A stretch of 64,000 nucleotides of DNA, from contig CAVVJT010000007.1 of the NCBI GenBank assembly GCA_963748625.1, forward strand, positions 1,152,001-1,216,000, given 5' to 3'. The position numbers and the translations under genes are program-made. This DNA is from an uncultured Chloroflexia bacterium (lineage in GTDB: Bacteria > Chloroflexota > Limnocylindria > Limnocylindrales > CSP1-4). The notes below the pieces were generated by a model. The model was not told where the DNA came from. It made no database searches and worked only from the letters and a program-made list of their open reading frames with translations. Of the stretch, positions 28,007-54,017 are shown piece after piece (the first letter of the stretch is position 1; the number at the start of each line of letters is the position of its first letter).

Positions 28007-28865
28007 CCGGCCGACTCGTCGTGCAGGCGCTCGTCGTGCAGGCGGCGGGCCAGGTCGCGGTCGAACACGGCCGGGCGCTGCATGCCCCCGGGATAGCCGA
28101 GATCCCGGCCGGTGCTGTCGCGCCGGACGAACCCGGTCGCCGTGGCCCGCCAGCCCCGGGCGTACTTCGCCAACTGCCCGCCGTAGACCCCGAGCTGCTC
28201 GAACGACCCGTGGAAGCCGCCGTGGCTGGTCGTGGTGCCAGCGGTGATGGCGGCCCGCACATCGTCCGGGCGTGCGCCCCGGGAACGTCGTCCAGCACGC
28301 TGCCGATCGCAGCGAGCGCGTGCGCGTCGCTGTTGCCGACGGCGGGCAGGCCCACCTCATCGGCGAACCGGACAACCGCATCGTGGCGGTACTTGCCCAG
28401 CGCCGTGGGATTCCAGGTCTCGAGCGCGTCGGGGTGCACGGAAGGATTGTCGTCGTTCAGGAGGCGCCGGATCGCGCTTCCCTGCGCGCACATGGGGAAC
28501 GGCACGAGCGGGTGGGCGGGGATGGCGAGGCCACCCTGGTCGTGGATGGCCTCGATCGACCAGCGCAGGCTCTTCATGGACGGGACCGGCCGCTCCAGGA
28601 AGAGGGCGAGCAGGTGTCCGCCACGGGTGCTGACCTCCTCGCCCACGATCACCTGGACCCGCAGGCCCTGGTCCTGCGCCATCTGGCGGGCGGCCAGGCC
28701 GGAGTCCACCCGCTCGTGGTCGGCGATCGCGATCACGTCCAGGACACCCTCGGCCTCCACGTGGTCGAGCACGGCCTGGACCGGCGCCGTCCCGTCCGAA
28801 GCCCAGGTGTGGATGTGCAGGTCGGCGCGGCCCCGGCGGACGGTCGGGTCGAGGTGCTCGCTCAC
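28003..28865 (-). CDS. PHP-family metal-dependent phosphoesterase; frameshift at about 28285
   Basis: DLHIHTWASDG, IADHE, GEEVST.GGHLL, PAHP, GNSDAH. Confidence 0.88.
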
Positions 28866-38861: not shown

Positions 38862-40334
38862 CTAGCTGATCGCCGCGGCGGCGGTCCCGACGATCGTGAG
38901 GAGGATCTCCGGGAAGAGGCCGAACACGATCGTGAGCACCGTGGCAACCGTCAGGCCGGCCCAGACCAGCCGACCGTGGCGCATGACCACCGGTTCGCCC
39001 TCCGCGTCGCGCATCCACATGTAGACCACGACACGAAGGTAGTAGAACGCGGCAACCGCGGCATTGAGCATCGTCACCACGGCGAGGACGGTCATCCAGC
39101 CGCCGGCGTTGACCGCGGCCAGGATCACGTAGAACTTGCCGAAGAAGCCGGCCGTCGGCGGGATGCCGGTGAGGCTCAGCAGGAACAAGGTCATCAGGAT
39201 CGCGAGCTTGGGCTCGCGGCGGATGAGGCCGGCGAACGTCGAGAGGTTGGAGGTCACACCCTGGCGGCGCTGGATGGCCGCGATGACCGCGAAGGCGCCC
39301 AGGTTCATGAACGCGTACGCCGCGCCGTAGAACAGCAGCCCCTCCAGGCCCAGGATCTCGCCCTGTGCGAACGCCGCCAGGCCCACGAGCATGTAGCCGG
39401 TGTGCGCGATGGACGAGTACGCCAGCATGCGCTTGACGTTGTCCTGCGTGAGCGCGACCAGGTTGCCCAGGGTCATCGTGAGGACCGCGAGCACCATGAC
39501 GACGGCACTCCAGTAGTCGGCGGAGAGCGGCCCGAGGGCCTCGCCGAACAGGCGGAGGATCAGGGCGAAGGCACCCACCTTCGGGCCGACCGACAGGTAG
39601 CCGGTGACCGGCGTCGGGGAGCCCTGGTACGCGTCGGGCGTCCAGTAGTGGAACGGGACGGCCGCGATCTTGAACGCGACACCCGTCATCAGGAAGGCAA
39701 GCCCGAGGCCCAGGCCCGGTGTCATGGCGACGGCGCCGCTGGCCATCTGGGTCATGACGGCCGCGACGCCCGAGATGCTCGTGGTGCCCGTGAGACCCCA
39801 GACGAACGCGAGGCCGAACAGGAAGATCGCGGACGAGAAGGAGCCCAGGAGGAAGTACTTGATCGCACCCTCGGTGCTGTAGCCGTCGGTCTTGTGGTAC
39901 CCCGCGAGGATGTAGCCCGGCAGGACCATGAGCTCGAGGCCCAGGAACAGCACCAGCAGGTCCGCGGATGCCGCGATGAGCATCGCGCCCGACATTGCGA
40001 ACGCGAGAATCGCAGCGAACTCGGGCACCGGCAGGCCCCGTGCCTCGAGGTAGTCCGGCGCGAACATCATCGTGAGCGCGACGATCGCGATGAACAGGAT
40101 GTCCAGGAAGGTCGTCAGCGGGTCGACGATGTAGACCCCGTTGAAGGCCGTGGAAGTGGCGCCGTCTGCGCCGACCATCAGGGTCAGGGCCGCGGTCAGC
40201 CCCAGGCCCAGGAACGTGGTCAGCAGCGCCGGGACCTTGCGGCCCGGGAAGATGAAGTCGACGATCAGGACCGCCGCCGCGACGAGGACCGCCGCGATGA
40301 AGGGCGCGATGACGATGACGTCGGAGAAGCTCAC
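38862..40334 (-). CDS. nuoN: NADH-quinone oxidoreductase subunit N
   Basis: EGAIKYFLLGS, FKIAAVPFHYWTPDAYQGSP, KRMLAYSSIAHTGY, GIPPTAGFFGK. Confidence 0.96.
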   Translation of the reverse strand: MSFSDVIVIAPFIAAVLVAAAVLIVDFIFPGRKVPALLTTFLGLGLTAALTLMVGADGATSTAFNGVYIVDPLTTFLDILFIAIVALTMMFAPDYLEARGLPVPEFAAILAFAMSGAMLIAASADLLVLFLGLELMVLPGYILAGYHKTDGYSTEGAIKYFLLGSFSSAIFLFGLAFVWGLTGTTSISGVAAVMTQMASGAVAMTPGLGLGLAFLMTGVAFKIAAVPFHYWTPDAYQGSPTPVTGYLSVGPKVGAFALILRLFGEALGPLSADYWSAVVMVLAVLTMTLGNLVALTQDNVKRMLAYSSIAHTGYMLVGLAAFAQGEILGLEGLLFYGAAYAFMNLGAFAVIAAIQRRQGVTSNLSTFAGLIRREPKLAILMTLFLLSLTGIPPTAGFFGKFYVILAAVNAGGWMTVLAVVTMLNAAVAAFYYLRVVVYMWMRDAEGEPVVMRHGRLVWAGLTVATVLTIVFGLFPEILLTIVGTAAAAIS

Positions 40335-40344
40335 CGTGGTCCTC

Positions 40345-41895
40345 CTACCGCCACAGGGACTGGGCGACGGGGGCGGCCTGTTGGACGAATTCGAGCGTCG
40401 TCTCGACCGAGCCTTGGATCAAGTCCAGGATGAGACCCGGCCAGAGGCCGAAGATCACGACGAGGGCTCCGAGCGGGACCAGGGTCAACGCCTCGACCGG
40501 CCGCATGTCGGTGAGGTGGGACCCCAAGCCCTTGAGGAAGTCCGATAGTTCGCCGAATGCCACGCGCTGGAACATCCAGAGCAGGTAGCCCGCGGCGAAG
40601 ATCATCACGAAGGTGGCAATCAGAGCCGCCAACTGGTTGGCCTCGAAGGTGCCGACCAGGGTCAGGAACTCGCCGACGAACCCGGACAGGCCCGGCAGGC
40701 CGACCGAGGCGAAGACGAAGAACCCGAACGCCGCGGCGAACACTGGGGTCTTCGACCCGAGGCCACCCATCTTGGCGATGGTGCGGTCATGCGTGCGCTC
40801 GTAGATCACGCCCACGAGGAGGAACAGGGCGCCGGTGATGAGACCGTGGTTGACCATCTGCAGGATCGCGCCCTGGAGGCCCTGTTCCGTGAAGACGAAG
40901 ATGCCCAGCGTCACGAAGCCCATGTGGGACACGGACGAGTAGGCGACCAGCTTCTTGAGGTCCGGCTGGACCAGTGCCACGATCGCGCCGTAGATGATGC
41001 CGATCAGCGAGAGGACGATGATGACCGGCGCCCAGCTGTGGGCGGCCTCGGGGAACAGCGGCAGCGCGAAGCGGATGAAGCCGTAGCCGCCCAGCTTGAG
41101 CAGGACACCGGCCAGGATCACCGAGCCCGCCGTGGGCGCCTCGACGTGGGCGTCGGGCAGCCAGGTGTGGAACGGGAACATCGGGACCTTGATCGCGAAG
41201 GCGAGGAAGAACGCGCCGAAGGCGACCAGGCCGAAGGTGCCGCCGAAGGCGCCGGTCTGTGCGAACGAGGTCAGGTTGGTGACGCTGAAGGCGCCGTCCC
41301 AGGTCCCCGTCGTCGCCTGGTAGGTGTAGGCGCAGGCCAGGATCGCGACCAGCATCAGCAGCGAGCCGACGAGGGTGTACAGGACGAACTTGATCGTGGC
41401 GTAGATGCGGTTCTTGCCGCCCCAGATGCCGATGAGCAGGTACATCGGGACCAGGACCAGCTCCCAGAAGATGTAGAACAGGAACAGGTCCAGGGCGACG
41501 AACACGCCGATCATGCCCACCTCGAGGACCAGGAAGGAGACCATGTACTCCTTGACCCGGTTCTGGATGGGACCGAACGACGCAAGGATGCTGATCCAGG
41601 TGAGGGTCGTCGTCAGGACGACGAGCACGATCGACAGCCCGTCAACGCCCACGGCGTAGTTGATCCCGAACATCGGGATCCACGGGATGCTCTCCATGAA
41701 CTGGTAGCCGGGTGTGCCCGCCACGAAGGCGGCGAGCATCAGGAGCGAGGCGACCCAGGCCGCCAGCGCGAAGCCGAGGGCCGTGTAGCGCGCTGCGTTG
41801 GGCCGGCTCGAGGGCGTGAACGCGACAACGAGCGCGCCCAGGAGCGGCAGGAACGTGACGAGGGTCACGAGCGGGAGCGAGGTCAGCGCGCTCAT
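40345..41895 (-). CDS. nuoM: NADH-quinone oxidoreductase subunit M
   Basis: FYIFWELVLVPMY, AIKVPMFPFHTWLPDAHVEAPTAGS, GLPGLSGFVGEF. Confidence 0.96.
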   Translation of the reverse strand: MSALTSLPLVTLVTFLPLLGALVVAFTPSSRPNAARYTALGFALAAWVASLLMLAAFVAGTPGYQFMESIPWIPMFGINYAVGVDGLSIVLVVLTTTLTWISILASFGPIQNRVKEYMVSFLVLEVGMIGVFVALDLFLFYIFWELVLVPMYLLIGIWGGKNRIYATIKFVLYTLVGSLLMLVAILACAYTYQATTGTWDGAFSVTNLTSFAQTGAFGGTFGLVAFGAFFLAFAIKVPMFPFHTWLPDAHVEAPTAGSVILAGVLLKLGGYGFIRFALPLFPEAAHSWAPVIIVLSLIGIIYGAIVALVQPDLKKLVAYSSVSHMGFVTLGIFVFTEQGLQGAILQMVNHGLITGALFLLVGVIYERTHDRTIAKMGGLGSKTPVFAAAFGFFVFASVGLPGLSGFVGEFLTLVGTFEANQLAALIATFVMIFAAGYLLWMFQRVAFGELSDFLKGLGSHLTDMRPVEALTLVPLGALVVIFGLWPGLILDLIQGSVETTLEFVQQAAPVAQSLWR

Positions 41896-43952
41896 CGGGG
41901 CTGCCCCACGATCCACAGGAAGGAGACCGCCATCACGATCAGGCCGACCGCGATGCCCAGGGCGTAGTTCTGCACCCGCCCCGTCTGGATCCTCCGCAAG
42001 CCTCCGCCTGCGTCCCTGGTCACGCTGCCCACGCCGTTGACGGTGCCGTCCACGATCGCGCGGTCGAACCACCAGAGGAACGCGGCGACGCGGCCGCCGA
42101 TCCGGATGAAGAGCAGGTCATTGAGCTCGTCGAACCACCACTTGTTGAGGGAGGCGCGGTAGAGGAAGCGGGTGCCGCTGTTGCGGGCCACGATCGCGTC
42201 GACCTTCGCCTGCTTCACTGGCCGCTTGAAGATGCCGAACAGGTAGATGCCGACGGAGATGCCGAGGGCCGCCGCGGCGACCGAGATCAGCACGAGAACG
42301 CCGTCGATGCCCATCAGCGCGAACGCCTCGGGCGTGCCGTGGAGGTACTCCTCGGCCTCGTGGAACACCGGCTCGAGCCAGCCGACGATCGTGCTCTCCT
42401 GGCCCAGGAACAGCGCGCCGCCGAGGACCAGGCCCAGGAGCATCGAGGGGATGGCGAGCAGGATCAGCGGGACGGTCATCCACTTGCTGCTCTCATGGAT
42501 GTGCGGTTCGACCGCCGGATCCACGCGGGACTCGCCGTAGAAGGTCTTGCCCATGAGGCGCCACATGTAGAACGCGGTCATGACCGCGACCGTCACGCCG
42601 ATGGCCCAGACCCACTGGAAGCCGAACTTGAACGCCTCGCCCAGGATCTCGTCCTTCGAGAAGAAGCCCGCGAAGGGCGGGATGCCGGCGATCGCGATCG
42701 TGCCGATCAGCATCGTCCAGTGGGTGATCGGGATCTTCCTCCACAGGCCGCCCATCCGGTTCATGTCCTGCTCGTCGTGGACCGCGTGGATCACGGAGCC
42801 GGACCCGAGGAACAGCAGGCCCTTGAAGAAGCCATGGGTCATCAGGTGGAAGATCGCCGGGATGAACGCGCCCACGCCGAGCCCGGAGAACATCAGGCCC
42901 AGCTGGGACAGCGTGGAGTACGCGAGCACGCGCTTGATGTCCGTCTGGGTGAAGGCGATCGACGCAGCGAGGATCGCGGTGAAGATGCCGATCGCGGCCA
43001 CCACCACCATGGCGTCCTGCGCGTGGGCGAACAGCAGGTTGGAGCGGGCGACGAGATAGACGCCCGCGTTGACCATCGTTGCGGCGTGGATCAGGGCAGA
43101 GACCGGGGTGGGACCCTCCATCGCGTCCGGCAGCCAGACGTGGAGCGGGAACTGGGCCGACTTGCCCATCGCGCCCGCGAAGACCAGCAGCGCCACGATC
43201 GTGAGCGGCACCACGTTCTCCGCGCCCGTCTCGGTCATGAGCTTGATGCTGTCCTGGATGTTCAGCGTGCCGGTGTTCACGAAGATCGCCATGATCCCAA
43301 GCGCGAACCCGACGTCACCGACGCGGTTGACGATGAAGGCTTTCTTCGCGGCAAGGGCCGCAGACCGCTTGTGGTACCAGAACCCGATCAGGGAGTAGCT
43401 CGACAGGCCCACCAGCTCCCAGCCCGCGAAGACCAGCACCCAGTTGTTGGCCAGGGTGAGCACGAGCATCGAGAACATGAACAGGTTCAGGTAGGCGAAG
43501 AAGCGCCAGGCCGCCTTGTCGTGCGCCATGTACCCGACCGAGTAGATGTGCACGAGCATGCCGATCGTGGTGACCACGATCAGGAGGGCGGCGGTGAGGG
43601 CGTCGACATGGAAGCCGAGCTCGACCTGGAACGAGCCCGCCGGGATCCATGTCCAGAGCATCACGTCGAGACCCTGCTCGCCGAAGGGCTCCATGTGGTT
43701 CAGGGCGGGCCAGACCACGGCCATCGTGATCAGCCACACGGCGATCACGACCAGGACCGGGACGGCCTCAGCCGCGCCGCGCCCCCACTTCGCCTGCAGC
43801 CGGCGCCCGAACAGCGCGGTGAAGGCGAAGCCGAGGATCGGCAGCAGCGCGATGAGCGGGATCAGGATCCCGTAGATGCCGGGATCGGCGGATGCGCCGC
43901 CTTCGACGGCGGTCTCCGTGGAGGCGAGGATGAGGCTCGGGAGGAAGTGCAT
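41892..43952 (-). CDS. nuoL: NADH-quinone oxidoreductase subunit L
   Basis: KAFIVNRVGD, GKSAQFPLHVWLPDAMEGPTPVSALIHAATMV, QTGRVQNY. Confidence 0.97.
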   Translation of the reverse strand: MHFLPSLILASTETAVEGGASADPGIYGILIPLIALLPILGFAFTALFGRRLQAKWGRGAAEAVPVLVVIAVWLITMAVVWPALNHMEPFGEQGLDVMLWTWIPAGSFQVELGFHVDALTAALLIVVTTIGMLVHIYSVGYMAHDKAAWRFFAYLNLFMFSMLVLTLANNWVLVFAGWELVGLSSYSLIGFWYHKRSAALAAKKAFIVNRVGDVGFALGIMAIFVNTGTLNIQDSIKLMTETGAENVVPLTIVALLVFAGAMGKSAQFPLHVWLPDAMEGPTPVSALIHAATMVNAGVYLVARSNLLFAHAQDAMVVVAAIGIFTAILAASIAFTQTDIKRVLAYSTLSQLGLMFSGLGVGAFIPAIFHLMTHGFFKGLLFLGSGSVIHAVHDEQDMNRMGGLWRKIPITHWTMLIGTIAIAGIPPFAGFFSKDEILGEAFKFGFQWVWAIGVTVAVMTAFYMWRLMGKTFYGESRVDPAVEPHIHESSKWMTVPLILLAIPSMLLGLVLGGALFLGQESTIVGWLEPVFHEAEEYLHGTPEAFALMGIDGVLVLISVAAAALGISVGIYLFGIFKRPVKQAKVDAIVARNSGTRFLYRASLNKWWFDELNDLLFIRIGGRVAAFLWWFDRAIVDGTVNGVGSVTRDAGGGLRRIQTGRVQNYALGIAVGLIVMAVSFLWIVGQPR

Positions 43953-43964
43953 CTCGATCCCCGC

Positions 43965-44297
43965 CTACTGCCGCATCGCGTCGTACTCGTCGACGAGCGG
44001 CGTCTTCTTGTTGCGGTAGATCGCGATCACGATGGCCAGGCCCACCGTCGCCTCGGCGGCTGCGGCCGCCATCACGACGAGGGCGATGACCGAGGCGTCC
44101 ACGTTCAGCGACAGGCTGAAGGCGCCGAAGGCGATGATCGCGAGGTTGACGGCGTTGAGCATCAGCTCGATCGACATCAGCATGCTGATCGCGTTGCGCC
44201 GCGCCAGGAAGCCGAAGGTGCCGATCGCGAACAGGAGGCCCGCGAGGACCAGGTACGCGTCGAGGCTCTGGCTGATCCCGTCGAGGAAGGAGAGCAT
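43965..44297 (-). CDS. nuoK: NADH-quinone oxidoreductase subunit K
   Basis: RRNAISMLMSIELMLNAVN, AAAEATVGLAI. Confidence 0.96.
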   Translation of the reverse strand: MLSFLDGISQSLDAYLVLAGLLFAIGTFGFLARRNAISMLMSIELMLNAVNLAIIAFGAFSLSLNVDASVIALVVMAAAAAEATVGLAIVIAIYRNKKTPLVDEYDAMRQ

Positions 44298-44833
44298 CAG
44301 TCGGTGCCCCCCTTCTCGCGCTTGGCGATGAAGATCCCGCCGATCACGGCCGAGAGGAGCAGGACGCTCACGACCTCGAACGGGAGGACGTAGCCGTCGA
44401 AGAGGCGGGTCGCGAGCTCCACGGTGTTCGTCCAGATCCGGGCGCCGGACTCCGGCCACTCGGTGGAGGCGACCACCACCGCGATGAGGATCGCGAGCAC
44501 CGCGGATGCGATCGCGGCCGGGAACCACTGGGTCTGGAAGACCAGCTCCCTGGGGCCGGCCTTGGACTGGGTCAGCATGATCGCGAACAGGACCAGCACG
44601 CTGATGGCGCCGATGTAGACGAGCACCTGCGTCGCGGCCACCACGGGGGCCCCCGCCAGCACGTAGAGCCCGGCCAGCGCGGCGAAGCAGATGATCATCG
44701 CCAGGCCGCAGCGGATGATGTCGCGCATGGCGACAACCAGGATGGCCGAGCCGACCATGATGGCCGCCAAGGTCATGAACAGGAGGTCATCCCAAGCGAA
44801 CCCCAGCAGCGGGATCGTCTCCGGCAGCGTCAC
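44297..44833 (-). CDS. nuoJ: NADH-quinone oxidoreductase subunit J
   Basis: QVLVYIGAISVLVLFAIML, YVLPFEVVSVLLL. Confidence 0.95.
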   Translation of the reverse strand: MTLPETIPLLGFAWDDLLFMTLAAIMVGSAILVVAMRDIIRCGLAMIICFAALAGLYVLAGAPVVAATQVLVYIGAISVLVLFAIMLTQSKAGPRELVFQTQWFPAAIASAVLAILIAVVVASTEWPESGARIWTNTVELATRLFDGYVLPFEVVSVLLLSAVIGGIFIAKREKGGTD

Positions 44834-44842
44834 GCGTCCCTC

Positions 44843-47471
44843 TCAGCGTTCGTGGGCGTGGCTCGACCCGTTGCCGGAGTCGTGGCCATTGCCGTTCCCG
44901 AGCGAGGCAGGCAGGACGGGGAGCAGCCGGGCCTGGTCGATGGTTCGACCCTCGGCCCGGGCACGCTCGGCCCAGTCGCGCTCGCGGCGGATGTAGCTCA
45001 TCTCTGTCTCGCGCTCCACCGAGGCCAGGGCGAGCAGGTCGATCATCGGCTCCTCGCGGCTGACGTGGGCAAGCTCGAACTGGTCCGAATCGCGGACGGC
45101 GTCGTACGGGCAGGCGTCGACGCAGATGCCGCACAGGATGCAGCGGCTCTCGTCGACGTCGTACTTCTGCAGCACCCGGGGCTTGGGCATCAGCGCCCCC
45201 GTGGGGCACGTCTCGGCACAGCGGCCGCAGGACACGCACGGCGTGTCGTTGAGGCTCATGTCGAGCGGCGTCGTCACCAGGGTGTCGAAGCCGATCCGCA
45301 TGAAGTCGTAGCAGGCGGCGCCCACCACCTCTGCGCAGACGTTGGCGCAGCGGCCGCAGTCGATGCAGCGCGAGGGCTCGCGGAGGATGAAGGCGTGGGA
45401 GTCGTCGCGGACGTAGTCGTGGTTGACGCCGGTGAAGCGGTTCTCGGTGACCGAGCGGTACCCGGCGCCCTGGTGGTAGCCCTTCTCCAGGGACTTGAGC
45501 GTGGTCCCGTACTCGATGCCCAGGCGGCGCAGGTCGCAGAAGCCAATCGCCTCGCAGGTGCACTGCAGGCAGCGGGTGGACTCCTTGATGGCCTCGTCGC
45601 GGGTGTACGGAATCTCGTACTCGACGTACGTGGTCTTGACCTCTTCGAGGTCCAGGGCCTTGAGGCGGTAGCGCGGCTCCTTCGGCTCGCCGGTGAACGG
45701 CACGATCGAGAGGAACTCCGGCTGCGGCTCGGCCAGCGTCTGGCGGGTCCGGATGGCGGCGAGGTCGTTGCCCTTGAGGTAGGCGTCCACCGCGTAGGCG
45801 GCACGCCGACCCTCGGCGATGGCCTGGACCACGGTCGCGGCGCCGATTCGCACGTCGCCGGCGCCGAAGACGCCGGGGCGGCCGGTCTCGAAGGTGACCG
45901 CGTCGGCCTGGAGCCGGCGGTTCTTCGTGGCCGCGATCCCGCCGGACCCGTTGCCGAGCCAGCGCAGGTCGGGGCCCTGGCCGATCGCGAGCATGACGCG
46001 GTCGCAGGGGATGGTGAACTCGGTGCCGGCGGCGGGCTCGGGGCGGCGGCGACCGGACGCGTCGGGCTCGCCCAGCTGCATCCGGATGAACTCGATGCCC
46101 TCCACCTTGCCGCTCTCGCCCACGATCACGCGGGTGGGGCCGGCCTGGAAGATGGCGACGACGCCCTCATCGAGCGCCTCGTGGACCTCGGAGGCCGCCG
46201 GCATGTCCTTCATGTCGCGCCGGTAGACCAGCGTGACCTCGGGGCTGCCCTGGCGGATGGAGGTGCGCACGGTGTCCATCGCGGAGAAGCCACCGCCGAC
46301 CACCACGACGCGGGCCTTGTCATGGCCCGGGTACGGGAGGCCCAGGGTGGCGGTGCGCAGGTAGTCGAGGGCGTCGATGACGCCGTCCGCGTCCTCGCCC
46401 GGGATGCCGAGCTTGTTCGTGTCGTAGCAGCCGATGGCGACCACGACCGCGTCGAAGCCCTGGTGCTGCAGGTCCTCGACCGTGAAGTCCTTGCCCAGCT
46501 CCTGGTTGCAGCGCATCTTCCCACCGAGGCGGGTGACGGACTCGTACTCAGCCTCGAGGACCTCGACCTTGGGCAGGCGGTACTGCGGGATGCCGTACCG
46601 GAGCATGCCGCCCGGCGCAGGGTCACGCTCGAAGACGGTCACTTCGTGGCCCGAGAGCAGGAGGTAGAAGGCGGCCGACATGCCGGCGGGTCCGGAGCCG
46701 ATGACGGCGGCGCGGCGGCCGGACGGGGCCTGCTTCTCGAAGGGGAGCGGGGGATCGACGTTCTCGTCGTGCATGGCGCGCAGGACCTGGTCGCCGGCGT
46801 ACCGGTGGCTGTCGCGGATCGCGATCGCCTCGTCGACCTCGTCGCGCCGGCAGTGCTCCTCGCACGGGGCGGGACAGACGCGGCCGAGCACGCTGGGGAA
46901 CGGGATGGTGCGCTTGAAGATCCGCACCGACTCGCGCCAGTTCGCCTCGGCGTTCGCCTTGAGGAAGCCCGGGATGTCGATGTGGCTGGGGCACTTGTTC
47001 TGGCAGGGCGGCAGGCAGTACGCGTTGTGGTCCGAGAAGATCAGCTCGAGGTTGGTCTTGCGGATCCGGCGCAGCTCGTCGGTCTGGGTCTGGACCTTCA
47101 TCTCGGGCTCGGCCAGGCGCGAGCAGGAGATCGGCGGCTGGTCCTCGCCCTCCACCTCGACCACGCACATCCGGCAGGCACCGAAGCCCGGCAGCTTGGG
47201 CTCGTAGCAGAGGGTGGGGATCTCGATGCCGTTGTCACGGCAGACCTCGAGGATCGTCTGGCCCTCGAAGCCCTCGATCAGGCGGCCGTCCACCTCGAGG
47301 CGGATGCGCGGCGTGCTCTGGGGCCGCTGCGGGCTCTGCGTGGTGATGAACCGCTCCGCGAGGGAGTCCTCGCTGCGGCGTGATGGTGTCCAGGGTGGCC
47401 GGCTGGTCGGGCCGGACCTCCTTGTTGCGGGTCGCGGGGACGTCCTGGGGACGAACGATGAGGTCGGCCAT
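44843..47471 (-). CDS. Fusion: NuoG-like FeS N-terminus, GltD/NfnB-like FAD/NADPH oxidoreductase, 2x4Fe-4S domain, NuoI C-terminal half; frameshift at about 47375
   Basis: IPTLC..GACRMC..ISC (2Fe-2S); PCQNKCP, GRVCPAPCEEHC; GSGPAG; GGGFSAMD..VYRR; RCLQCTC; CIDCGRCANVC; CVSCGRCAETCP; YDVDESRCILCGICVDACPYDAV..FELA; TGATG-coupled to nuoF. Confidence 0.88.
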
Positions 47472-48809
47472 CAGCGGGCTCCTGCTGCCGTCGCACCGGC
47501 GCCCATCGCGATCGGCGTACAGACGCCGGCCGGGCAGGTGGAGCGAACAAGGTGGTCGTCGAGCTCGGAGCGGAAGTGGCGCATGGCGCTGGTGAACGCC
47601 AGGGTGGCCTTGCGCTCGTGGTCGCAGAGCGCGGAGGCCGAGATGTCGTGGGCGAGGTCCTCGAGCAGGACCGCGTCGTTGGCGCGCGGGGTGCCCGCCG
47701 CGATCCGGTCGCCGATCTCCGAGAGACGGCGCAGGCCGATGCGGCACGGGATGCTCTTCCCGCAGGCGTTGTCGGCGGAGAAGCGGGTCAGGAGCCGGGC
47801 GAGGTCGACGACACAGGCCCGGTCGTCCGCGATCACCACGGAGCCGGAGCCGACGTGCGCGCCGGCGGCCTCGAGCGAGGCGTAGTCGTAGGGGGTGTCC
47901 AGGAGGTCGGCCGGGAGGAGCCCGCCCGTGGAGCCGCCGACCAGGACCGCCTTGAGCGGGCGCCCGCCGGTGCCGCCCGGCAGCGGCCACGAGGTCACGT
48001 AGCGGGGTGCCCAGGGCCACCTCGACGATGCCGCCGCCCTGCGGGCCACGGACCGCGACGAGCGTGGTGCCCGGCGAGCCAGGGATGCCGATGGCCGAGT
48101 ACGCCTCACCGCCCAGCCGCACGATCCAGGGGACCGCGGCGAGCGTGAGGATGTTGTGGACAAGGGTGGGCTTGTCGAACAGGCCGCGCTCGGTGGGGTA
48201 GGGCGGCTTCTGCTCGGGCTGGCCGCGCTTGCCCTCGAGGGCCTTGAGCAGGACCGTCTCCTCGCCCAGCATGTAGGCCCCCTGGAGGCCGCGGACCGTC
48301 ACGTTGACCGTGTGCCCGGAACCCAGGATGTCCTCGCCCAGGAGGTTCGCCTCCTCGGCCGCCTGGACCGCGCCCTCGAGCATGGCCACAAGCCCCGCGT
48401 CCTCGCCGCGGACGACGAGGATCGCCTCCGTGGCGCCGACGGCGTAGGCCGCGATCACGAGGCCCTCGATGACGAGGTACGGGTCGGCGGTGAGCAGCGC
48501 CTGGTCGATGCGGACCGACGGGTCGGCGCCGTAGCCGTTGGCGACCACGTAGCGCTGGACGGGGCCGGACTCGGCGACCGCGCGCCACTTGTCGGCGGCG
48601 GGGTAGCCGGCGCCGCCGCGGCCGCGCAGCCCGGCGGCCCGGATGGTCGCCATCGTGGTGGTGCCGCCATCGCGGACGGCCTTGCGCAGGCCCTCGAACG
48701 CGCCCGCCTTGACGGCGGCGTCCAGGTCGGCCGGGTTGGCCTTGAGCGTCTCCATGCGGCCGGTGAGGACCGCGGGCGTGCCGGCCTTGGCGGGGAGGAA
48801 GGTGGTCAT
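47471..48809 (-). CDS. nuoF: Divergent NuoF/HydB-like subunit; frameshift at about 47977
   Basis: GLRGRGGAGYP..KW, GAYMLGEETVLL..LEGKRGQP, GSGSV, ACGKSIPCRIG, LC, CPAGVC. Confidence 0.85.
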
Positions 48810-49471
48810 CAGCTCGCCTTGCCCCCGTAGCCGAGCGACGCGTCGAGCGCCGAGCGGAAGCGGTCCTCGGCCACGACCTGCGCGGTGCCGGCCGCGGGTG
48901 CGGTCGCGACGGCCGGCGGCTCGAAGCGGAGGTGCCGGTAGTAGGTCGCGGTGCCGTAGATCATCGCGTACCAGGCGCCCGTGGCGCGGGAGATGTGCTT
49001 GAGCGCGGCCACCGGCAGGTAGCCGTACTCGGCCTGCGTCTCGTCGAGGATCGCGAGCATCTCCTTGGGGTCCCAGTCATGGGCCTCGAGGATCGCGTCG
49101 AGCGGGGCGATGTCGATGCCGTCGAAGCGGGTGTACGCCATGTCGGCAACCGGGCGGCCGGAGCGGCGCAGCGCGGACTCCTCGCGGCGCTCGCCGTAGG
49201 TCTCGGATGCGCCCCAGTGGACGTGGAACCGGCCCTTGGTGTCCACGCCGCCCATGTCGATGCACTCGATCGGACAGGCCTGGGCGCACTGGAAGCAGGT
49301 CTCGCACTTGAGCGAGCCGTACTCGTCGTACAGGAGCTGCAGGCGGCCGCGGAACTTGGGCGCGACGTCCGCCTTCTCCTCGGGCCACTTGATGGTCGCC
49401 TTCGGCTGGAAGAAGCGGCGCAGCGTCAGGCTCATGCCGCGGACGAGACCGATGCCGGGGATCGTGTTCAT
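48809..49471 (-). CDS. Fusion of NuoI N-terminal half (one CxxCxxCxxxCP) with NuoE N-terminal helical domain (no 2Fe-2S domain)
   Basis: GMSLTLRRFF..T..WPEE..FRGR..CETCFQCAQACP, then LAILDETQAEYGYLP..IYGTATYY..LRFEP. Confidence 0.88.
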   Translation of the reverse strand: MNTIPGIGLVRGMSLTLRRFFQPKATIKWPEEKADVAPKFRGRLQLLYDEYGSLKCETCFQCAQACPIECIDMGGVDTKGRFHVHWGASETYGERREESALRRSGRPVADMAYTRFDGIDIAPLDAILEAHDWDPKEMLAILDETQAEYGYLPVAALKHISRATGAWYAMIYGTATYYRHLRFEPPAVATAPAAGTAQVVAEDRFRSALDASLGYGGKAS

Positions 49472-49474: not shown

Positions 49475-50872
49475 TCAGCCACCCTGGATGGTCTTGACCA
49501 CGATGATCGCCGTGGCCGTGAGGAACAGGTTGAGCAGAGCAGCGGGCAGGAGCCACTTCCAGGCGAAGCCCATGAGGTGGTCGATCCGCACGCGCGGGAA
49601 CGTGGCGCGCATCCAGACGAAGACGAAGACGAAGGCGAAGCTCTTGATGAAGAACCAGAGCATGCCCGCGACCCAGTCCCAGCTGATGAACGCGAACAGG
49701 AACGCTGCGCCGATCGCCACCACGTTGAACAGCAGGAAGCCCGCCACCAGCGCCTTCCAGGCGGGAGCGCCGCGCTTGGCGAGGTAGTACGGCAGGGCGA
49801 ACAGCAGCGTCAGGACCACCGGCACGACCAGCAGGAGCACCAGCAGGCCCATGCCCAGGCTGCCCGGGTCGAGGCTGATGGTGATCGGCTGGAGGCTGGT
49901 GCCGGCCCAGGAGTTGATCCACGCGAGGGTGGCGTTGAGGTCGACCGGCGCGTTCCAGGCCCCGAAGAAGAAGGTCGTCAGCAGCGCCGACACGATGAAC
50001 ACGTTCACGTACTCGGCGAAGAACAGGAAGCCGAACCGCATGCCCGAGTACTCGGTGGCGAAGCCGGCGACGATCTCCGAGTCCGCCTCGGTGAGGTCGA
50101 ACGGCGTCCGGTTGGCCTCCGCGATGGAGGCGATGAAGAAGATCAGCGCGCCCAGCGGCTGGCGGAAGACGAACCAGTCGGTGAACCAGCCCGCCTGCTG
50201 GTTGGCCAGCTCGTAGACCGACAACGAGCCCGCGAGCAGGATCAGGCCCACGACCGAGAGGGTCAGCGGGATCTCGTACGAGACCATCTGCGCCGCGGAG
50301 CGCAGGCCGCCCAGCAGCGAGTACTTGTTGCTTGACGACCAGCCGGCGAGCAGCAGGCCCACCACCGTCATGCCGCCCACCGCGAACAGGTAGAGCACGC
50401 CGATGTTGAGGTCCTGGCCGACGAGGCCCGGGCCGAACGGGATGACCAGGAACGTCATCACCGCGGTCAGGAACACGAGGACGGGCGCCCACGTGAACAC
50501 GAGCACGTCGGCGTTGCCGGGGGTGAAGTCCTCCTTGGTCAGCACCTTGAGACCTGCGACCACGGAGTGGGCGGCGCCCTTGGGGCCGACCCGGTCCGGG
50601 CCCACGCGGAGGTTCATGAAGGCGATGACCTTCAGCTCCATGTAGATGATGAGGAACGCGGCCGGGATGCTGAACAGCAGGACGCCGGTGATGGCGACCA
50701 GGAACCGGACGATCCCCATGTTCGAGCTGAGCACGTCCGCCAGCCACGGGCCCAGGACTGTCAGCGCGAAGATCGCCAGGAGCGGCCCGACCACCAGGAC
50801 TAGGACCAGCAGCGGGATGACGATCTTGCCGAGGACCGTCATGTTGTTCCAGGTGCGGGTGAGTGTCGTCAT
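49475..50872 (-). CDS. nuoH: NADH-quinone oxidoreductase subunit H (extended)
   Basis: RVGPDRVGP, NKYSLLGGLRSAAQMVSYEIP, NRTPFDLTEADSEIVAGFATEYSG, RATFPRVRID. Confidence 0.96.
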   Translation of the reverse strand: MTTLTRTWNNMTVLGKIVIPLLVLVLVVGPLLAIFALTVLGPWLADVLSSNMGIVRFLVAITGVLLFSIPAAFLIIYMELKVIAFMNLRVGPDRVGPKGAAHSVVAGLKVLTKEDFTPGNADVLVFTWAPVLVFLTAVMTFLVIPFGPGLVGQDLNIGVLYLFAVGGMTVVGLLLAGWSSSNKYSLLGGLRSAAQMVSYEIPLTLSVVGLILLAGSLSVYELANQQAGWFTDWFVFRQPLGALIFFIASIAEANRTPFDLTEADSEIVAGFATEYSGMRFGFLFFAEYVNVFIVSALLTTFFFGAWNAPVDLNATLAWINSWAGTSLQPITISLDPGSLGMGLLVLLLVVPVVLTLLFALPYYLAKRGAPAWKALVAGFLLFNVVAIGAAFLFAFISWDWVAGMLWFFIKSFAFVFVFVWMRATFPRVRIDHLMGFAWKWLLPAALLNLFLTATAIIVVKTIQGG

Positions 50873-50880
50873 CGTCCGGC

Positions 50881-52125
50881 CTACTTGTCGATGCCGCCCA
50901 TGATCGGGTCGAGCGATGACATCACTGCCATCGTGTCCGCGATCAGGTTGCCCTTCACCAGCAGGCCGACCAGCTGCAGGTTCACAAACGACGGGTCGTG
51001 GATCTTGAGCCGGAACGGCTGGTCGGTGCCGTCGGAGATGGCGTAGGTTCCGAACAGGCCGCGCGGGCCTTCGACAGCCGCCCAGGCGCGCCCGGGCCGC
51101 GGCCGGACCAGCCGGGGCAGGCGTGCCATGACGGGTCCATCGGGCATGTTGTGGAGGCACTGGTCGATGATCCGCAGGCTCTGCTTGATCTCGTCGAGGC
51201 GCAGCAGGTAGCGGTCCAGGGAGTCACCGCCCTCCGGGCCGGTGCCGCGGACGGGGATGTCGAACTCGAGCTCCGGGTACACGGAGTAGGGATGGTCGCG
51301 GCGGAGGTCGAACTTGACCCCGGCGGCCCGCAGGTTGGGGCCGGTGACACCCATCCGGAACGCGAGGTCGGGGTCCACCCGGCCGATGTCGCGCATGCGG
51401 CGGACGAAGATCTCGTTCTCGTTGAGCAGGCCGGCGTTGGCCTCGATCTGGGTCAGCGCGCGGCTCATCCAGTCGCCCAGGCGGGACATGAACTCGTGGT
51501 TGACGTCGCCGTTCACGCCGCCGATGCGGAAGTAGTTGAACAGCATCCGCTGGCCGGTGATGGAGGCCAGCATCTCCACGATCTCGTCGCGCTCGATGAA
51601 CGCGTAGAGGATGGGCGTGAGGCCGCCGAGGTCGAGCGCCATGAACCCCTGGAAGAGGCCGTGGCTCGAGATGCGCAGCAGCTCGCCGGTCAGCACGCGG
51701 ATGTACTCGGCGCGCCTGGGGACCTCGACGTCGAGCAGCTGCTCGAACGCCATCACCGGCGCCCACTCGCAGAACAGCGAGCTCACGTACTCGAGCGGGT
51801 CCATCTGGGTGATGACGTGGTGGTAGTCCGAGTTCTCGGCGATCTTCTCCACGCCCCGGTGGAGGTATCCGAGGACCGGGTCCAGGTCCACGACCTGCTC
51901 GCCGTTGATCTTGAGGACGACGCGCAGCACGCCGTGCGTGGACGGGTGGTGCGGACCCATGTTGATGAGCATCTCGCCGTCGGCCACGGAGTAGAACTCG
52001 GCCTCGCGCTCGGTGCGCGGCGGATACGGCGGGATGGACTCGAACTGCCCGATCTGGTCGTCGAGCATGATCCGCGGGTCGTCCAGGGAGGGGTGCTGGC
52101 CCGGGCGGGCCTGGGAGGTCGTCAT
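50881..52125 (-). CDS. nuoD: NADH-quinone oxidoreductase subunit D
   Basis: NMGPHHPSTHGVLR, GYLHRGVEK, EGPRG, DPIMGGIDK. Confidence 0.97.
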   Translation of the reverse strand: MTTSQARPGQHPSLDDPRIMLDDQIGQFESIPPYPPRTEREAEFYSVADGEMLINMGPHHPSTHGVLRVVLKINGEQVVDLDPVLGYLHRGVEKIAENSDYHHVITQMDPLEYVSSLFCEWAPVMAFEQLLDVEVPRRAEYIRVLTGELLRISSHGLFQGFMALDLGGLTPILYAFIERDEIVEMLASITGQRMLFNYFRIGGVNGDVNHEFMSRLGDWMSRALTQIEANAGLLNENEIFVRRMRDIGRVDPDLAFRMGVTGPNLRAAGVKFDLRRDHPYSVYPELEFDIPVRGTGPEGGDSLDRYLLRLDEIKQSLRIIDQCLHNMPDGPVMARLPRLVRPRPGRAWAAVEGPRGLFGTYAISDGTDQPFRLKIHDPSFVNLQLVGLLVKGNLIADTMAVMSSLDPIMGGIDK

Positions 52126-52127
52126 GG

Positions 52128-52676
52128 TCAGGCCTTCACCGTGCGGCGCACGACACGCTCCGTCGCCTGGACGGGCACGTGGGACCGCTCCATCTGGCGC
52201 ACGCCGGCGCCGGGGGAGCGGGCGGCGTCGTCGGGGAGATAGAAGTCCTTGCGGAGCGGAAAGCTGACGTAGTCCGGCGGCATGTAGATGCGCCGCAGGT
52301 CCCGGTTCCCCTCGAAGACGATCCCGAACATGTCGTACGTCTCGCGCTCCATCCACTCGGCACCGGGCCACAGGCCGGTCAGCGTGGGTACGCGCGGGTT
52401 GTCACGCGGGAGCGGTTCGCAGATCACGCGCAGCCAGTCCGGCGTCGTGGCCGCCCAGACGTGGTAGGTCACGTTCATGTGCTCGCCGGTGTCCACGCCG
52501 GCAAGGTCCGCCAGCATGACGAAGGCGAAGTCCGGCTCGTCGTGGAGCGCGGTCAGGACCTCGATGACGTCCGCCGGGCCGACGCGGATCTCGGTCTGGT
52601 CGTGCCGCTGGCGGACGGGTCCCACGAGCCTGTCCGCGAACCGTGCCTCGAGGCGCTTGCGCAGCTGACGGTCCAC
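52128..52676 (-). CDS. nuoC: NADH-quinone oxidoreductase subunit C
   Basis: DLAGVD, WPGAEWMERETYDMFGIVFEG, PLRKDF. Confidence 0.95.
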   Translation of the reverse strand: MDRQLRKRLEARFADRLVGPVRQRHDQTEIRVGPADVIEVLTALHDEPDFAFVMLADLAGVDTGEHMNVTYHVWAATTPDWLRVICEPLPRDNPRVPTLTGLWPGAEWMERETYDMFGIVFEGNRDLRRIYMPPDYVSFPLRKDFYLPDDAARSPGAGVRQMERSHVPVQATERVVRRTVKA

Positions 52677-52678
52677 GG

Positions 52679-53428
52679 CTAGACGTCCTTCGGCACGGTG
52701 GGGCCGACGCGGTGCTCGTCCCAGTGGCCGCGCCGCTCCTTCACGAGCTGGCCCAGCTTCATCATCCCGTAGATGAGACCCTCGGGACGCGGCGGGCACC
52801 CGGGGACGTACACGTCCACCGGCATCAGGCGGTCGATGCCCTCAACCGTGGCGTACGAGCGCTTGTAGCGGCCGCCCGAGCAGGTGCAGTCACCCATCGC
52901 CACGCACCACTTGGGCTCCGGCATCTGCTCCCACAGGCGGACGAGCGGACCGGCCATCTTGGTGGTGAGCGTGCCCGCGACGATCAGCACGTCCGCCTGG
53001 CGGGGGCTGGCGCGGAACGGGAACATGCCCCAGCGGTCCATGTCGTTCTTGGACGTGGCGCTGGACATCATCTCGAACGCGCAGCAGGCGAGGCCCGACA
53101 GCAGCGGCCAGAGGCTGTTCATCCGGATCAGGTCGACGATGTAGTCGGCCTTGGTGGGGATCACCTCGAGCTGGCCCCAGCGCGCGGTGTCGGACACCTG
53201 GCCGTCCGTGCCCTCGAGGGCCGCGAGGTGGTAGTAGGGCGCGGGGGCCGGGTAGGCGGCGGGGTTGTTCGAGGCCCAGAGGGAGTTCGGCACGATCAGC
53301 GGGGCCGCCACGCCGGACGGCTGTGCCGAGACCAGCGCGCCGGGCAGGCTCCCGGGCTGGTCAGCGCCAATGGGTGAGGCATCACCCGCCGCGGCAGCGG
53401 CCTCGGGACCTTCGGGGTTCAGCGCCAC
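52679..53428 (-). CDS. nuoB: NADH-quinone oxidoreductase subunit B
   Basis: GLACCAFEMM, RASPRQAD, MPEPKWCVAMGDC, PVDVYVPGCPPRPE. Confidence 0.97.
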   Translation of the reverse strand: MALNPEGPEAAAAAGDASPIGADQPGSLPGALVSAQPSGVAAPLIVPNSLWASNNPAAYPAPAPYYHLAALEGTDGQVSDTARWGQLEVIPTKADYIVDLIRMNSLWPLLSGLACCAFEMMSSATSKNDMDRWGMFPFRASPRQADVLIVAGTLTTKMAGPLVRLWEQMPEPKWCVAMGDCTCSGGRYKRSYATVEGIDRLMPVDVYVPGCPPRPEGLIYGMMKLGQLVKERRGHWDEHRVGPTVPKDV

Positions 53429-53775
53429 GACAGCACTCCCTTGCGCCAGGCATAGGCGAGGCCGAGCAGGAGGACGCCGACGAAGATCAGCATGCTCACG
53501 AGGCCGCCCAGCAACAGGTCCTGGAAGACCAGGGCCCAGAGGTAGATGAACACGACCTCGATGTCGAAGGCCACGAACATCAGCGCGTAGATGTAGAAGC
53601 TGATGCCGAACCGGGCGTGGGTGTCGCCGTAGGTGTCGATGCCCGACTCGTAGGGGTAGCCCTTGTGCTCGTCACCGCGGGTGCGGTGGGAGATCAGCCA
53701 GGCCAGGCCGATCGTGCCGAAGACGAACAGGGTGCCGGCGATGGCGAACCCGACGACATACCAGATCCCGGTCAC
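53419..53775 (-). CDS. nuoA: NADH-quinone oxidoreductase subunit A
   Basis: YESGID, FVAFDIEVVFIYLWA, YAWRKGVLSW; GAGG RBS before GTG. Confidence 0.95.
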   Translation of the reverse strand: MTGIWYVVGFAIAGTLFVFGTIGLAWLISHRTRGDEHKGYPYESGIDTYGDTHARFGISFYIYALMFVAFDIEVVFIYLWALVFQDLLLGGLVSMLIFVGVLLLGLAYAWRKGVLSWR

Positions 53776-53885
53776 GTGATCCTCGAGGTCGAATGGGACC
53801 GCGTGTGCACTGCGCGGTCCGCGTTCGAGGTGTGATGGTTTGTTGCGTGTGCACCGGACCTCACTGGGCGAGGCACGGCGCGGAC

Positions 53886-53894
53886 ATTCTAGCA
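53886..53894 (-). promoter_or_regulatory. Extended -10 promoter of the nuo operon
   Basis: Minus strand TGcTAGAAT about 110 nt upstream of nuoA. Confidence 0.6.
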
Positions 53895-54017
53895 AGGCAG
53901 GTGCTGGAGGAATCACCTTCCGGCCCAGTCATGGCGGCCCATCCGGCTCTCAACGTGGGGGCCGGTGGCGCCCTCCGGGTGGCACGCGGTCGTGACCGGC
54001 GCCGGCTCGATCGCCAC

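Follow-up and report, generated by a model that had tools for sequence, protein, structure and literature searches.

A putative complex I variant of Limnocylindrales and related Chloroflexota with an Nfn/Stn-type input module encoded inside nuoI

The present study concerns a stretch of 64,000 nucleotides from an uncultured bacterium of the Limnocylindrales (contig CAVVJT010000007.1; hereafter the window), which contains an operon for respiratory complex I, and in particular the gene at 44843..47471 within this operon, which we name G'. Complex I is, by the textbook, specific for NADH. The operon described here apparently encodes a conserved and so far undescribed variant of this complex, in which a non-bifurcating input module of the Nfn/Stn type, with a conserved NADPH-type site, is placed within nuoI. 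With moderate confidence, we regard the product as a non-bifurcating, proton-pumping NAD(P)H:quinone oxidoreductase, the input of which is a cut-down NfnABC/Stn set. A conserved NADPH-type flavin site that is wired into the chain of complex I would change models of respiration and redox balance for the carriers, which are Limnocylindrales and related Chloroflexota.

The split nuoI gene and the cassette within it

On the minus strand, the operon starts with nuoA-B-C-D-H. These genes are followed by a fusion gene that joins the N-terminal half of NuoI to a NuoE-like N-domain (IE), by a NuoF-like gene (F), by G', which consists of an NfnA/StnC-like part and the C-terminal half of NuoI, and finally by nuoJ-K-L-M-N. 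The 11-subunit core (NuoA, B, C, D, H, I, J, K, L, M and N) is encoded in this one operon, NuoI solely in the form of two halves, and the E-like, F and G'-like frames lie exactly between these halves.

The assignment of the two halves is supported by family models and by alignments. In IE, residues 9-83 correspond to the N-terminal half of NuoI (TIGR01971 positions 1-66 of 121, E 8.5e-14, 51.2 bits) and align residue by residue with TYKY 22-87, including the sole CxxCxxCxxxCP motif. The second half is found in the last ~110 residues of G' (TIGR01971, 44.4 bits; Table 1), and these align with Paracoccus NuoI 93-147, including the motif and the FE.A..REE stretch that follows it. No intact NuoI was found in the genome: among 16 matches to TIGR01971 none scored over the cut-off of 113 bits, and the two CxxCxxCxxxCP motifs of the family do not occur together in one polypeptide above it. 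This pattern would be expected from the in-frame insertion of a three-gene cassette into nuoI of an A-B-C-D-H-I-J-K-L-M-N operon, although it is we who infer the direction of these events.

An initial annotation of G', made from the sequence of the window alone, had proposed that a soluble module was captured by complex I. The position inside a complete nuo operon and the covalent tie through two NuoI halves are in line with this view. Its wording that the module 'replaces NuoG' is correct in so far as the molybdopterin-like domain is gone, with the second half of NuoI in its place, but the NuoG-type N-terminal Fe-S domain has been kept. The arrangement would represent a clear example from nature of how a gene can take up a whole operon, giving two fusion proteins that must re-associate, as well as a second route by which the 11-subunit complex may have gained a pyridine-nucleotide module.

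Domains, conservation and kinship of the module

G' lies on the minus strand in a frame that is open from the stop of the preceding gene (47473-47471) to its own stop at 44843-44845. The window has ~70% G+C and long spurious open reading frames (ORFs) therefore occur on both strands. One of these, an 843-aa plus-strand ORF at 44852-47383 that runs antisense to G', was rejected as a gene, as only the minus frame matches families, solved chains and database homologues, the plus ORF itself not having been searched. The order of the motifs in G', read along the minus strand, is SDHNAYCLPPCQNKCP, VIGSGPAGMSAA, VVVGGGFSAMD...EVTLVYRRD, RCLQCTCEAIGFC, CIDCGRCANVC, CVSCGRCAETCP and CILCGICVDACP.

For the Pfam search, the longest uninterrupted ORF of G' was used (44843-47293, 816 aa, with a GTG start at 47293). 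The matches were Fer2_4 at residues 2-71 (E 3e-17), profile positions 1-17 only of NADH-G_4Fe-4S_3, the family of the NuoG His-ligated cluster, at residues 78-94, Fer4_20 at residues 93-171 (E 6.7e-17), Pyr_redox_2 at residues 195-495 (E 8.8e-29), Fer4_Nqo3 at residues 636-701 and Fer4 at residues 712-733. As a set, these domain matches are far beyond chance. They bear out most of what the initial annotation had described, namely a NuoG-type 2Fe-2S domain followed by a His-cluster motif that is interrupted by a full GltD-like FAD/NADPH domain (GSGPAG and GGG...YRR, within Fer4_20 and Pyr_redox_2). The same applies to the absence of a molybdopterin-type domain: no such family was present among the best 25 of 32 Pfam families, and a molybdopterin domain could not fit, since the intact homologues of G' have only 875 aa. 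Instead of the 'two more ferredoxin motifs' that had been described after the GltD insert, three CxxCxxCxxxC motifs are present, the third of which belongs to the C-terminal half of NuoI.

A protein search for homologues of G' gave 7987 matches among 7994 scored candidates. The best 120 of these show 81-100% identity and have lengths of 816-929 aa; in the databases they go by no names other than 'FAD-dependent oxidoreductase' and 'formate dehydrogenase major subunit', and they stem from Candidatus Limnocylindrales and other metagenome-assembled genomes (MAGs) of Chloroflexota. G' is 93% identical over 816 aa to the intact homologue P0003. The intact homologues are ~60 residues longer, start with MADL.. 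and have an ATG that overlaps the stop of nuoF. Position 47471, the start that had been assigned to G', corresponds to this ATG; in the window, it is out of frame by an extra base near 47374, and the longest uninterrupted ORF consequently begins at the GTG at 47293. The N-terminal extension (59 residues, 47294-47471) contains a conserved AERL(I/L)TTQSPQRPQ.TP stretch and has no family match.

Conservation was examined in 39 G' sequences of 43-91% identity, using the numbering of P0003. The four Cys of the 2Fe-2S site are invariant in all 39, as are H148 and C152 with C639 and C645 (His-ligated cluster), the FAD motif G258-G263, G392-G394, Y416-R417-R418, the eight Cys of the ferredoxin domain and the five residues of the NuoI half that are listed in Table 1. 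The ligands of the GltD-type clusters are invariant as well, with the exception of C156, which is conserved in at least 90% of the sequences. G' contains the features of GltD/NfnB-type NADPH-binding flavoproteins, namely two [4Fe-4S] sites, the GxGxxG motif for FAD and, as a second nucleotide motif, GGG with YRR after it. In the alignments, YRR also occurs in StnC, in the two NfnA chains, in Thermotoga NfnB and in Pyrococcus NfnL, and the same applies to the FAD GxGxxG motif and the Cys patterns. The YRR and FAD motifs are therefore common to every NADPH-using solved relative shown. In the GltD/NfnB/SfrB family, YRR alone is considered to dictate the preference for NADPH. An invariant His of G' occupies the position of StnC K170 at the FAD-proximal cluster, a residue that is functionally essential in StnC (PMC10482914).

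Two further family models place G' apart from established annotations. With NF009454 (PRK12814, 'putative NADPH-dependent glutamate synthase small subunit') G' reaches 552.7 bits over positions 4-631 of 657, compared with a cut-off of 916, and by this measure it is related to that family in architecture and is not the same equivalog. The NuoG model TIGR01973 gives 91 bits for profile positions 2-98 only, the cut-off being 470.

The kinship of the module was judged by bit scores and E values against solved PDB chains. Residues 56-788 of P0003 align in one piece with 4-700 of Caldicellulosiruptor NfnA (9bov_A; E 6e-157, 527 bits), and strong matches were also obtained with the archaeal Nfn-Bfu A subunit (9n5u_A; E 1e-143) and with Sporomusa StnC (residues 55-789 against 8oh5_C 3-701; E 1e-137, 463 bits). 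The identities of 9BOV and 9N5U were taken from PMC11829005 and PMC12018979. The NuoG chains of complex I reached E values of 1e-14 to 1e-19, in most cases within the N-terminal ~100 residues, and Thermus Nqo3 matched residues 635-844 instead, with 62 bits. These scores bear out the likeness of the E-F-G' trio to StnABC that had been suggested at the outset. In its architecture, G' has the 2Fe-2S domain, the GltD-split His motif and the two-cluster ferredoxin domain of the Nfn-Bfu/Stn A subunit. It lacks the C-terminal FdhF-like domain with cluster A5 of NfnA and StnC; G' ends ~90 residues past its last Cys motif, and the solved NfnA/StnC chains have 1172-1178 aa. The FdhF-like domain with A5 (C1 in the Stn numbering) is reported to be needed for Stn assembly (PMC10482914).

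A similar picture was obtained for the other two subunits. F scores best with NfnB (9bov_B; E 2e-101, 343 bits) and gives 333 bits with StnB, the values for NfnB, HydB and StnB being ~1e-98 to 1e-101, as compared with ~1e-57 to 1e-73 for the NuoF chains of complex I (Thermus Nqo1: E 3e-70, 240 bits). F spans only residues 113-526 of the 584-residue 9bov_B and is devoid of both the N-terminal thioredoxin-like and the C-terminal two-cluster domain. In IE, residues 117-186 match only positions 2-64 of 145 of Pfam 2Fe-2S_thioredx, and the best solved matches of this second half are NfnC (9bov_C 19-88) and StnA (8oh5_A 16-85). No thioredoxin-like 2Fe-2S domain was found in IE, which has no Cys after residue 66. 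On these comparisons, G', F and the N-domain of E have their nearest relatives among the soluble transhydrogenases NfnABC/Stn (Bfu), and not in NuoEFG.

Compared with the solved Bfu enzymes, three losses can be recognised, which are the FdhF-like domain of the A subunit, both accessory domains of the B subunit and, in the lineage of the window, the 2Fe-2S domain of the C subunit. For bifurcation, the flavobicluster B1-FMN-C1 is the minimal site, and ferredoxin binds at the B3/B4 domain (PMC11829005). F and IE together do not make up the bifurcating BC core of Bfu and, because the parts needed for bifurcation (the C1 domain and the B accessory domains) are lost, the module should not bifurcate. 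These losses also bear on the idea of an electron-confurcating complex of the 'Nuo-Bfu' type, which would need reduced ferredoxin plus NADH, as has been predicted for Geobacter-type operons. The module is of the Bfu lineage by sequence and Nuo-Bfu complexes have been predicted in print (PMC9304861). Nevertheless, this idea is extremely improbable for the present operon: F has neither of the terminal cluster domains, IE in the lineage of the window has no C1 2Fe-2S domain, which is part of the minimal bifurcating site (PMC11829005), and the cassette is located inside nuoI and after nuoH, whereas E-F-G genes usually lie between nuoD and nuoH.

Table 1. Coordinates of the operon genes and of sites within G' and IE. 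Positions refer to the window; residue numbers of G' are those of P0003.
Feature	Coordinates	Strand	Evidence or remark
G', NfnA/StnC-type subunit with NuoI C-half	44843..47471	-	875 aa when intact; extra base near 47374
2Fe-2S domain of G' (cluster A1, N1b-like)	47081..47290	-	Pfam Fer2_4; C88, C99, C102, C116 invariant
His-ligated cluster motif of G', first half, DHNAYC	47015..47032	-	H148, C152 invariant
Inserted GltD/NfnB-type domain of G', two [4Fe-4S] sites with FAD and NADPH sites	45764..47017	-	Pfam Fer4_20, Pyr_redox_2
FAD site GSGPAG in GltD-type insert	46682-46699	-	
NADPH site GGG...YRR in GltD-type insert	46217-46297	-	
CLQCTCEAIGFC: last two GltD-type cluster ligands, then second half of His-cluster motif	45536..45571	-	C634, C637, C639, C645 invariant
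Ferredoxin-like domain of G', two complete Cys motifs (A2, A4, Bfu nomenclature)	45203..45367	-	Pfam Fer4_Nqo3; 9bov_A alignment; eight Cys invariant
NuoI C-half, CILCGICVDACP...FELA	45041..45178	-	TIGR01971 71-116 of 121, E 1e-11; C777, C780, C783, C787, P788 invariant
nuoA (ORF extent; true start probably further downstream)	53419..53916	-	ORF; tblastn orthologues first in operon of related loci
nuoB	52679..53428	-	Pfam Oxidored_q6, E 3.4e-26
nuoC	52128..52799	-	Pfam Complex1_30kDa, E 4e-37
nuoD (ORF extent)	50881..52371	-	Pfam Complex1_49kDa, E 1.1e-80; match in pieces 1-173 and 199-271
nuoH (ORF extent)	49475..51160	-	Pfam NADHdh, E 2.7e-101
IE fusion gene, 220 aa: NuoI N-half and NuoE/NfnC/StnA-type N-terminal helical domain	48809..49471	-	
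NuoI N-half inside IE, single motif CETCFQCAQACP	49223..49447	-	C56, C59, C62, C66, P67 invariant in 36/36 sequences
NuoE/NfnC-like N-domain inside IE	48914..49123	-	Residues 117-186 vs 9bov_C, E 6.9e-11
nuoF-like FMN subunit (Bfu B-type core)	47471..48809	-	One extra base near 47976-47986
nuoJ	44297..44833	-	ORF; orthologues directly after G' in 67/67 loci with at least 0.8 kb downstream
nuoK	43965..44270	-	ORF, orthologues
nuoL	41892..43952	-	ORF, orthologues
nuoM	40345..41901	-	ORF, orthologues
nuoN	38862..40334	-	ORF, orthologues

Distribution of the arrangement and frameshifts in the window copy

When one genome per species was scanned, 622 stretches that encode relatives were obtained, of which the best 80 loci were kept, all but four with Chloroflexota-type titles. 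Among these 80 loci, the order IE-F-G' was present in 56/56 that had at least 2.3 kb of upstream sequence, G'-J in 67/67 with at least 0.8 kb downstream, and B-C-D-H-IE-F-G'-J-K-L in 40/40 with long flanks. The full A..N order was seen in 41 of the 80.

The distribution of the IE fusion was assessed in 401 sampled genomes of the phylum, a fusion being scored when a single match extended from query residue 10 or lower to residue 167 or higher. Such a match across both halves was found in 62 genomes, whereas the other 66 matching genomes showed only a NuoI-type or a NuoE-type half. The fusion is present in 24/24 genomes of the family to which the window belongs (its own genome included), in 4/4 genomes of a second family of the same order, which have sizes of 1.1-1.4 Mb, and in 16/16 and 2/2 genomes of two further families of the same class. 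Outside the class, four families were represented with 10/11, 4/5, 1/2 and 1 genomes (the family total of the last not being listed).

Some relatives from the same order or class have longer forms of IE (264-282 aa), and most of these (273-282 aa; loci L034, L083, L089, L074, L067, L072, L100 and others) contain a CxCxxC...C stretch. This stretch may be the remnant of a 2Fe-2S site (N1a/C1-like) that was lost in the lineage of the window, and it may be able to bind a cluster even now. In another family of the same class, 1.6-3 kb of DNA are located between G' and nuoJ (L100 14484-17496 and L104 14413-16053).

The genetic context differs outside the class. B-IE-F-G' stands alone at five loci (L096, L097, L098, L102, L105), B-D-IE-F-G' and A-B-C-D-H-IE-F-G' were each observed at one locus, and B-IE without F or G' was observed once (L103, a second site in genome G066). 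Four of five out-of-class genomes have a canonical full-length NuoI and a NuoD elsewhere; the genome with B-D-IE-F-G' (G317) has neither. Two genomes of Ktedonobacterales, a label that is based on a protein of G361 with 98% identity to a record of that name, have a separate A-C-D-H cluster (L115, L117) that is devoid of exactly B and I. This is what would be expected if the products of B-IE-F-G' join those of the A-C-D-H cluster. The nuoB that accompanies the module in Ktedonobacterales is a paralogue, and a canonical complex I is encoded in these genomes as well. Homologues were also found in cultured Thermogemmatispora, Ktedonobacter, Dictyobacter and Tengunoibacter, and these cultured Ktedonobacteria, in which the arrangement is dispersed and the B-IE-F-G' set is kept, make the function of the module testable at the bench. 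Related sequences occur in metagenomes from freshwater, sediment and soil. Spero et al. (2015) credited many Chloroflexi genomes with 13 of the 14 subunits of complex I, the missing one being NuoG, and the split-nuoI module may explain such scores.

The window copy of G' is FRAMESHIFTED, as compared with the longer gene in relatives. A DNA alignment with three relatives showed two single extra bases in the window, 612 bp apart, of which one is located near 47374 at the 5' end of G' and the other near 47976-47986 in nuoF. As a result of the latter, the Complex1_51K and NADH_4Fe-4S Pfam domains of F lie in different frames; nuoF is intact in L015 (446 aa) and L091 (442 aa). Contigs from run X1, which represent a related population with 95-96% identity, have one base fewer at 47374 and at 47976. 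To place these shifts in a wider context, frame switches were scanned by the strand-aware G+C content of third codon positions (GC3), a crude method that caught the shift in nuoF and missed that in G', because fewer than 40 codons lie upstream of it. The number of candidates was 162 in the 4.63 Mb of the genome itself (35 per Mb), 26 in 0.59 Mb for 26 long-contig 'MFD' MAG loci (44 per Mb) and 2 in 0.60 Mb for 35 loci of other MAGs (3.3 per Mb). In view of this long-contig-like rate and of the absence of the extra bases in relatives, we read the frameshifts as indel errors of long-read assembly, which is most likely for both of them. The scan also indicated two more candidate frameshifts in the window that are outside the operon, at 28221-28425 (minus strand) and 34923-34989 (plus strand).

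The alternative would be that the frameshifts are real and that the operon is decaying in this strain, with nuoF as a pseudogene and G' truncated at its N-terminus. This would be consistent with the fact that both are single-base insertions relative to three relatives, neither of which is in an obvious homopolymer run. We consider decay very unlikely, as the correct frame stays open and highly conserved past each shift, with the 816 aa of G' as close to P0003 as noted above. Moreover, the frame-switch rate of the genome resembles that of the long-contig MAGs and is about ten times that of the other MAGs, and the 95-96% identical contigs are without both bases.

Proposed electron routes, genome context and known systems

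In the mechanism that we propose, the two NuoI halves on two polypeptides would jointly bind clusters N6a and N6b, thereby bolting the module to the quinone module. NADPH would reduce the FAD of G', and its electrons would pass via the GltD-type clusters A7 and A6 and the His-ligated A3 into A2. NADH would reduce the FMN of F, and these electrons would reach A2 via B1 ([4Fe-4S]) and A1 (the 2Fe-2S cluster of G'). From there, the split NuoI would pass both streams on to N2 and menaquinone, which would drive the intact antiporter-like arm. The cluster chain of the enzyme could, in addition, allow NADPH and NAD+ to equilibrate. Menaquinone as the acceptor and energetics that permit pumping are taken here as general background.

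With respect to the exit, the path in the solved relatives is FAD-A7-A6-A3-A2-A1-B1-FMN, with A4/A5 as an overflow side branch (PMC11829005), and in other Bfu enzymes electrons from the catalytic domain enter at A4 (PMC9304861). In G', the NuoI motif follows 21 residues after the ferredoxin domain, as counted from its last Cys (C755) to C777. In the FwdF polyferredoxin, motifs of adjacent clusters can be aligned with this spacing and pattern. The retention of A4 together with this short distance to the NuoI motif favours an exit via A4 to N6a/N6b, N2 and quinone, and electrons probably leave through A4.

Judged by its gene content, the operon in the window is the only complex I of the genome. 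A second candidate, at 66-76 kb of contig C7, was rejected, as its gene set resembles that of a group-4 [NiFe]-hydrogenase. The genes at C7:66000-76300 (L112) encode a 681-aa HyfB-like protein, a NuoH-like protein, 221-aa and 540-aa proteins, a 525-aa NuoC-D-type fusion, a 114-aa NuoI-like protein and a NuoB-like protein. The fusion ends with CYACTDR, which we take to be a group-4 [NiFe]-hydrogenase motif. In the initial annotation, a genome check for PntAB and type II NADH dehydrogenase (NDH-2) had been advised. PntB is indeed present (C10:1241019-1242392, 585 bits), and reverse electron flow is therefore not needed for the supply of NADPH. A proton-translocating transhydrogenase is, by these gene assignments, found alongside the predicted NADPH-binding complex I. 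For NDH-2 (PF22366), the best match has 23.4 bits, which is below the cut-off of 27.7, and the model itself was found in only 3/14 control genomes; a 513-aa Pyr_redox_2 protein (C10:83287-84828) is a candidate only. At C5:84500-90500 (L114), a 1380-aa frame with NuoF-type FMN and GltD-type domains is followed by a 235-aa HoxU/NuoG-N-like gene. This NuoF-GltD fusion is a second, different combination of NuoF and GltD and is apparently soluble.

Several observations weigh against an NAD(P)H:quinone oxidoreductase as proposed above. The flavin-site loops of F differ from those of canonical NuoF and BfuB: NGYGADP is found in place of the NADE loop (N(G/A)(Y/F)(G/D/E)(A/S)DP across F orthologues), VQGAYMLGEE in place of GAGAY.CGEE, and N(N/S)(V/I)QT in place of NNVET. 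In addition, the second Cys of the [4Fe-4S] motif of F is S, T or A in the class of the window, and the oxidation of NADH by F is, from its sequence, not assured. If the frameshifts are real, nuoF is broken in this strain, and among sequencing runs none contained at least half of the sampled words, the best value being 0.31 and those for RNA runs 0.04-0.05. Electrons may alternatively leave by way of the His-ligated cluster, which is the route in canonical complex I. Lastly, a literature search, supplementary operon tables aside, found no publication on this arrangement or on the NADH dehydrogenase of these taxa.

The altered loops and the replaced Cys of F, as well as the loss of the NuoE-type 2Fe-2S domain in the lineage of the window and the invariance of every NADPH/FAD motif of G', would fit a complex I that uses NADPH only. 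In such an enzyme, F would be a scaffold without NADH or FMN function and the GltD-type FAD would be the sole entry, as implied by the title 'NADPH:quinone oxidoreductase' of the initial annotation. This restriction, as opposed to NAD(P)H:quinone, is not established, the NuoF-like FMN subunit being kept, and we consider it unlikely. The FMN phosphate loop GLRGRGGAG, K-W, GEE(T) and PP.P are retained across 63 F orthologues, down to ~35% identity. Furthermore, the loss of the second Cys co-varies with LC(D/E)HER or LCH beside the fourth Cys (window ~47700-47760 and 47600-47630), and distant F relatives that keep SCGKC have LCGFG at this place. The change in the [4Fe-4S] site may represent a ligand swap (Cys to His/Asp) and not decay. 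Likewise, the small same-order genomes of 1.1-1.4 Mb keep the IE fusion, and the sole complex I of a genome, as in the window, would be expected to oxidise NADH.

Another possibility is that the complex oxidises NADH and that its GltD domain is an outlet that reduces NADP+, which would make it a membrane-anchored source of NADPH. The outlet would then receive part of the electrons from NADH, or, under reverse flow, of those from quinol plus proton-motive force. The solved Stn/NfnABC enzymes are reversible between NADPH and NAD(H) over the same chain (PMC10482914, PMC11829005), and the chain FMN-B1-A1-A2-A3-A6-A7-FAD appears complete in the present module by ligand conservation. On the other hand, the transfer from NADH to NADP+ is uphill at physiological ratios without the co-oxidation of ferredoxin (PMC10482914), the parts for ferredoxin binding and bifurcation are gone, and PntB is already encoded in the genome. 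We judge such an outlet, with either source of electrons, quite unlikely, and retain the NAD(P)H:quinone oxidoreductase with two entries as our favoured view.

A farther-reaching proposal, which we put forward only tentatively and would not yet expect to hold in full, is that the operon reflects a second, independent invention of an input module for complex I. In this scenario, a cassette would have entered nuoI, bifurcation would have been lost and A4, until then a dead end, would have been rewired to the NuoI clusters, resulting in an enzyme that pumps on NADPH and NADH, has a built-in NADPH:NAD+ equilibrator and provides a bacterial class that is abundant in soil and freshwater with its main NAD(P)H dehydrogenase.

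In canonical complex I operons, nuoEFG is located between nuoD and nuoH. The genes of the present module, by contrast, follow nuoH and are located inside nuoI. The module resembles canonical NuoEFG in the homologous folds of F, of the N-terminal Fe-S domain of G and of the N-domain of E, and in the place of electron input. It differs from NuoEFG by its extra FAD/NADPH domain and by the absence of the molybdopterin-like domain and of N1a.

With NfnABC/StnABC (9BOV from C. saccharolyticus, 8OH5 from S. ovata and the archaeal 9N5U) the module shares the three-subunit logic and the anatomy of the A subunit up to residue ~700; F has its best match in the B-type FMN core, and the second half of IE in the C-type N-domain. 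Unlike these enzymes, G' has no FdhF/molybdopterin-like domain and no A5 and continues after A4 with the second half of NuoI, F is without both accessory cluster domains, and the C-type part is, in the lineage of the window, without the 2Fe-2S domain and fused to the N-terminal half of NuoI. At the FAD-proximal cluster, G' has His as the fourth ligand position, whereas it is Lys in StnC and NfnA and Glu in NfnB and NfnL. Furthermore, the module is encoded inside a nuo operon, in contrast to the soluble three-gene units of NfnABC/StnABC.

Bfu-type ABC modules in place of NuoEFG in the middle of an operon have been predicted as 'Nuo-Bfu' and 'Mbh-Bfu' (Schut et al. 2022, PMC9304861). These differ from the present module in having a full bifurcating BC core, with a proposed use of ferredoxin plus NADH; Nuo-Bfu comes from other phyla and Mbh-Bfu is linked to hydrogenase. 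The BfuB set of that study required a ferredoxin-type domain, which F does not have, and the terms 'NuoI', 'fused' and 'GltD' do not occur in its text. In Mbx-like operons, a GltD-related flavoprotein substitutes for NuoI and is regarded as an NAD(P)+-reducing outlet (Degli Esposti 2015, PMC4758237). The complex encoded in the window resembles these systems in that a GltD-type NAD(P)-binding flavoprotein is placed on a complex-I-related membrane complex, but it differs from them in that NuoI is kept in the form of two halves and that the GltD domain is an insert in a subunit of the NuoG/NfnA type.

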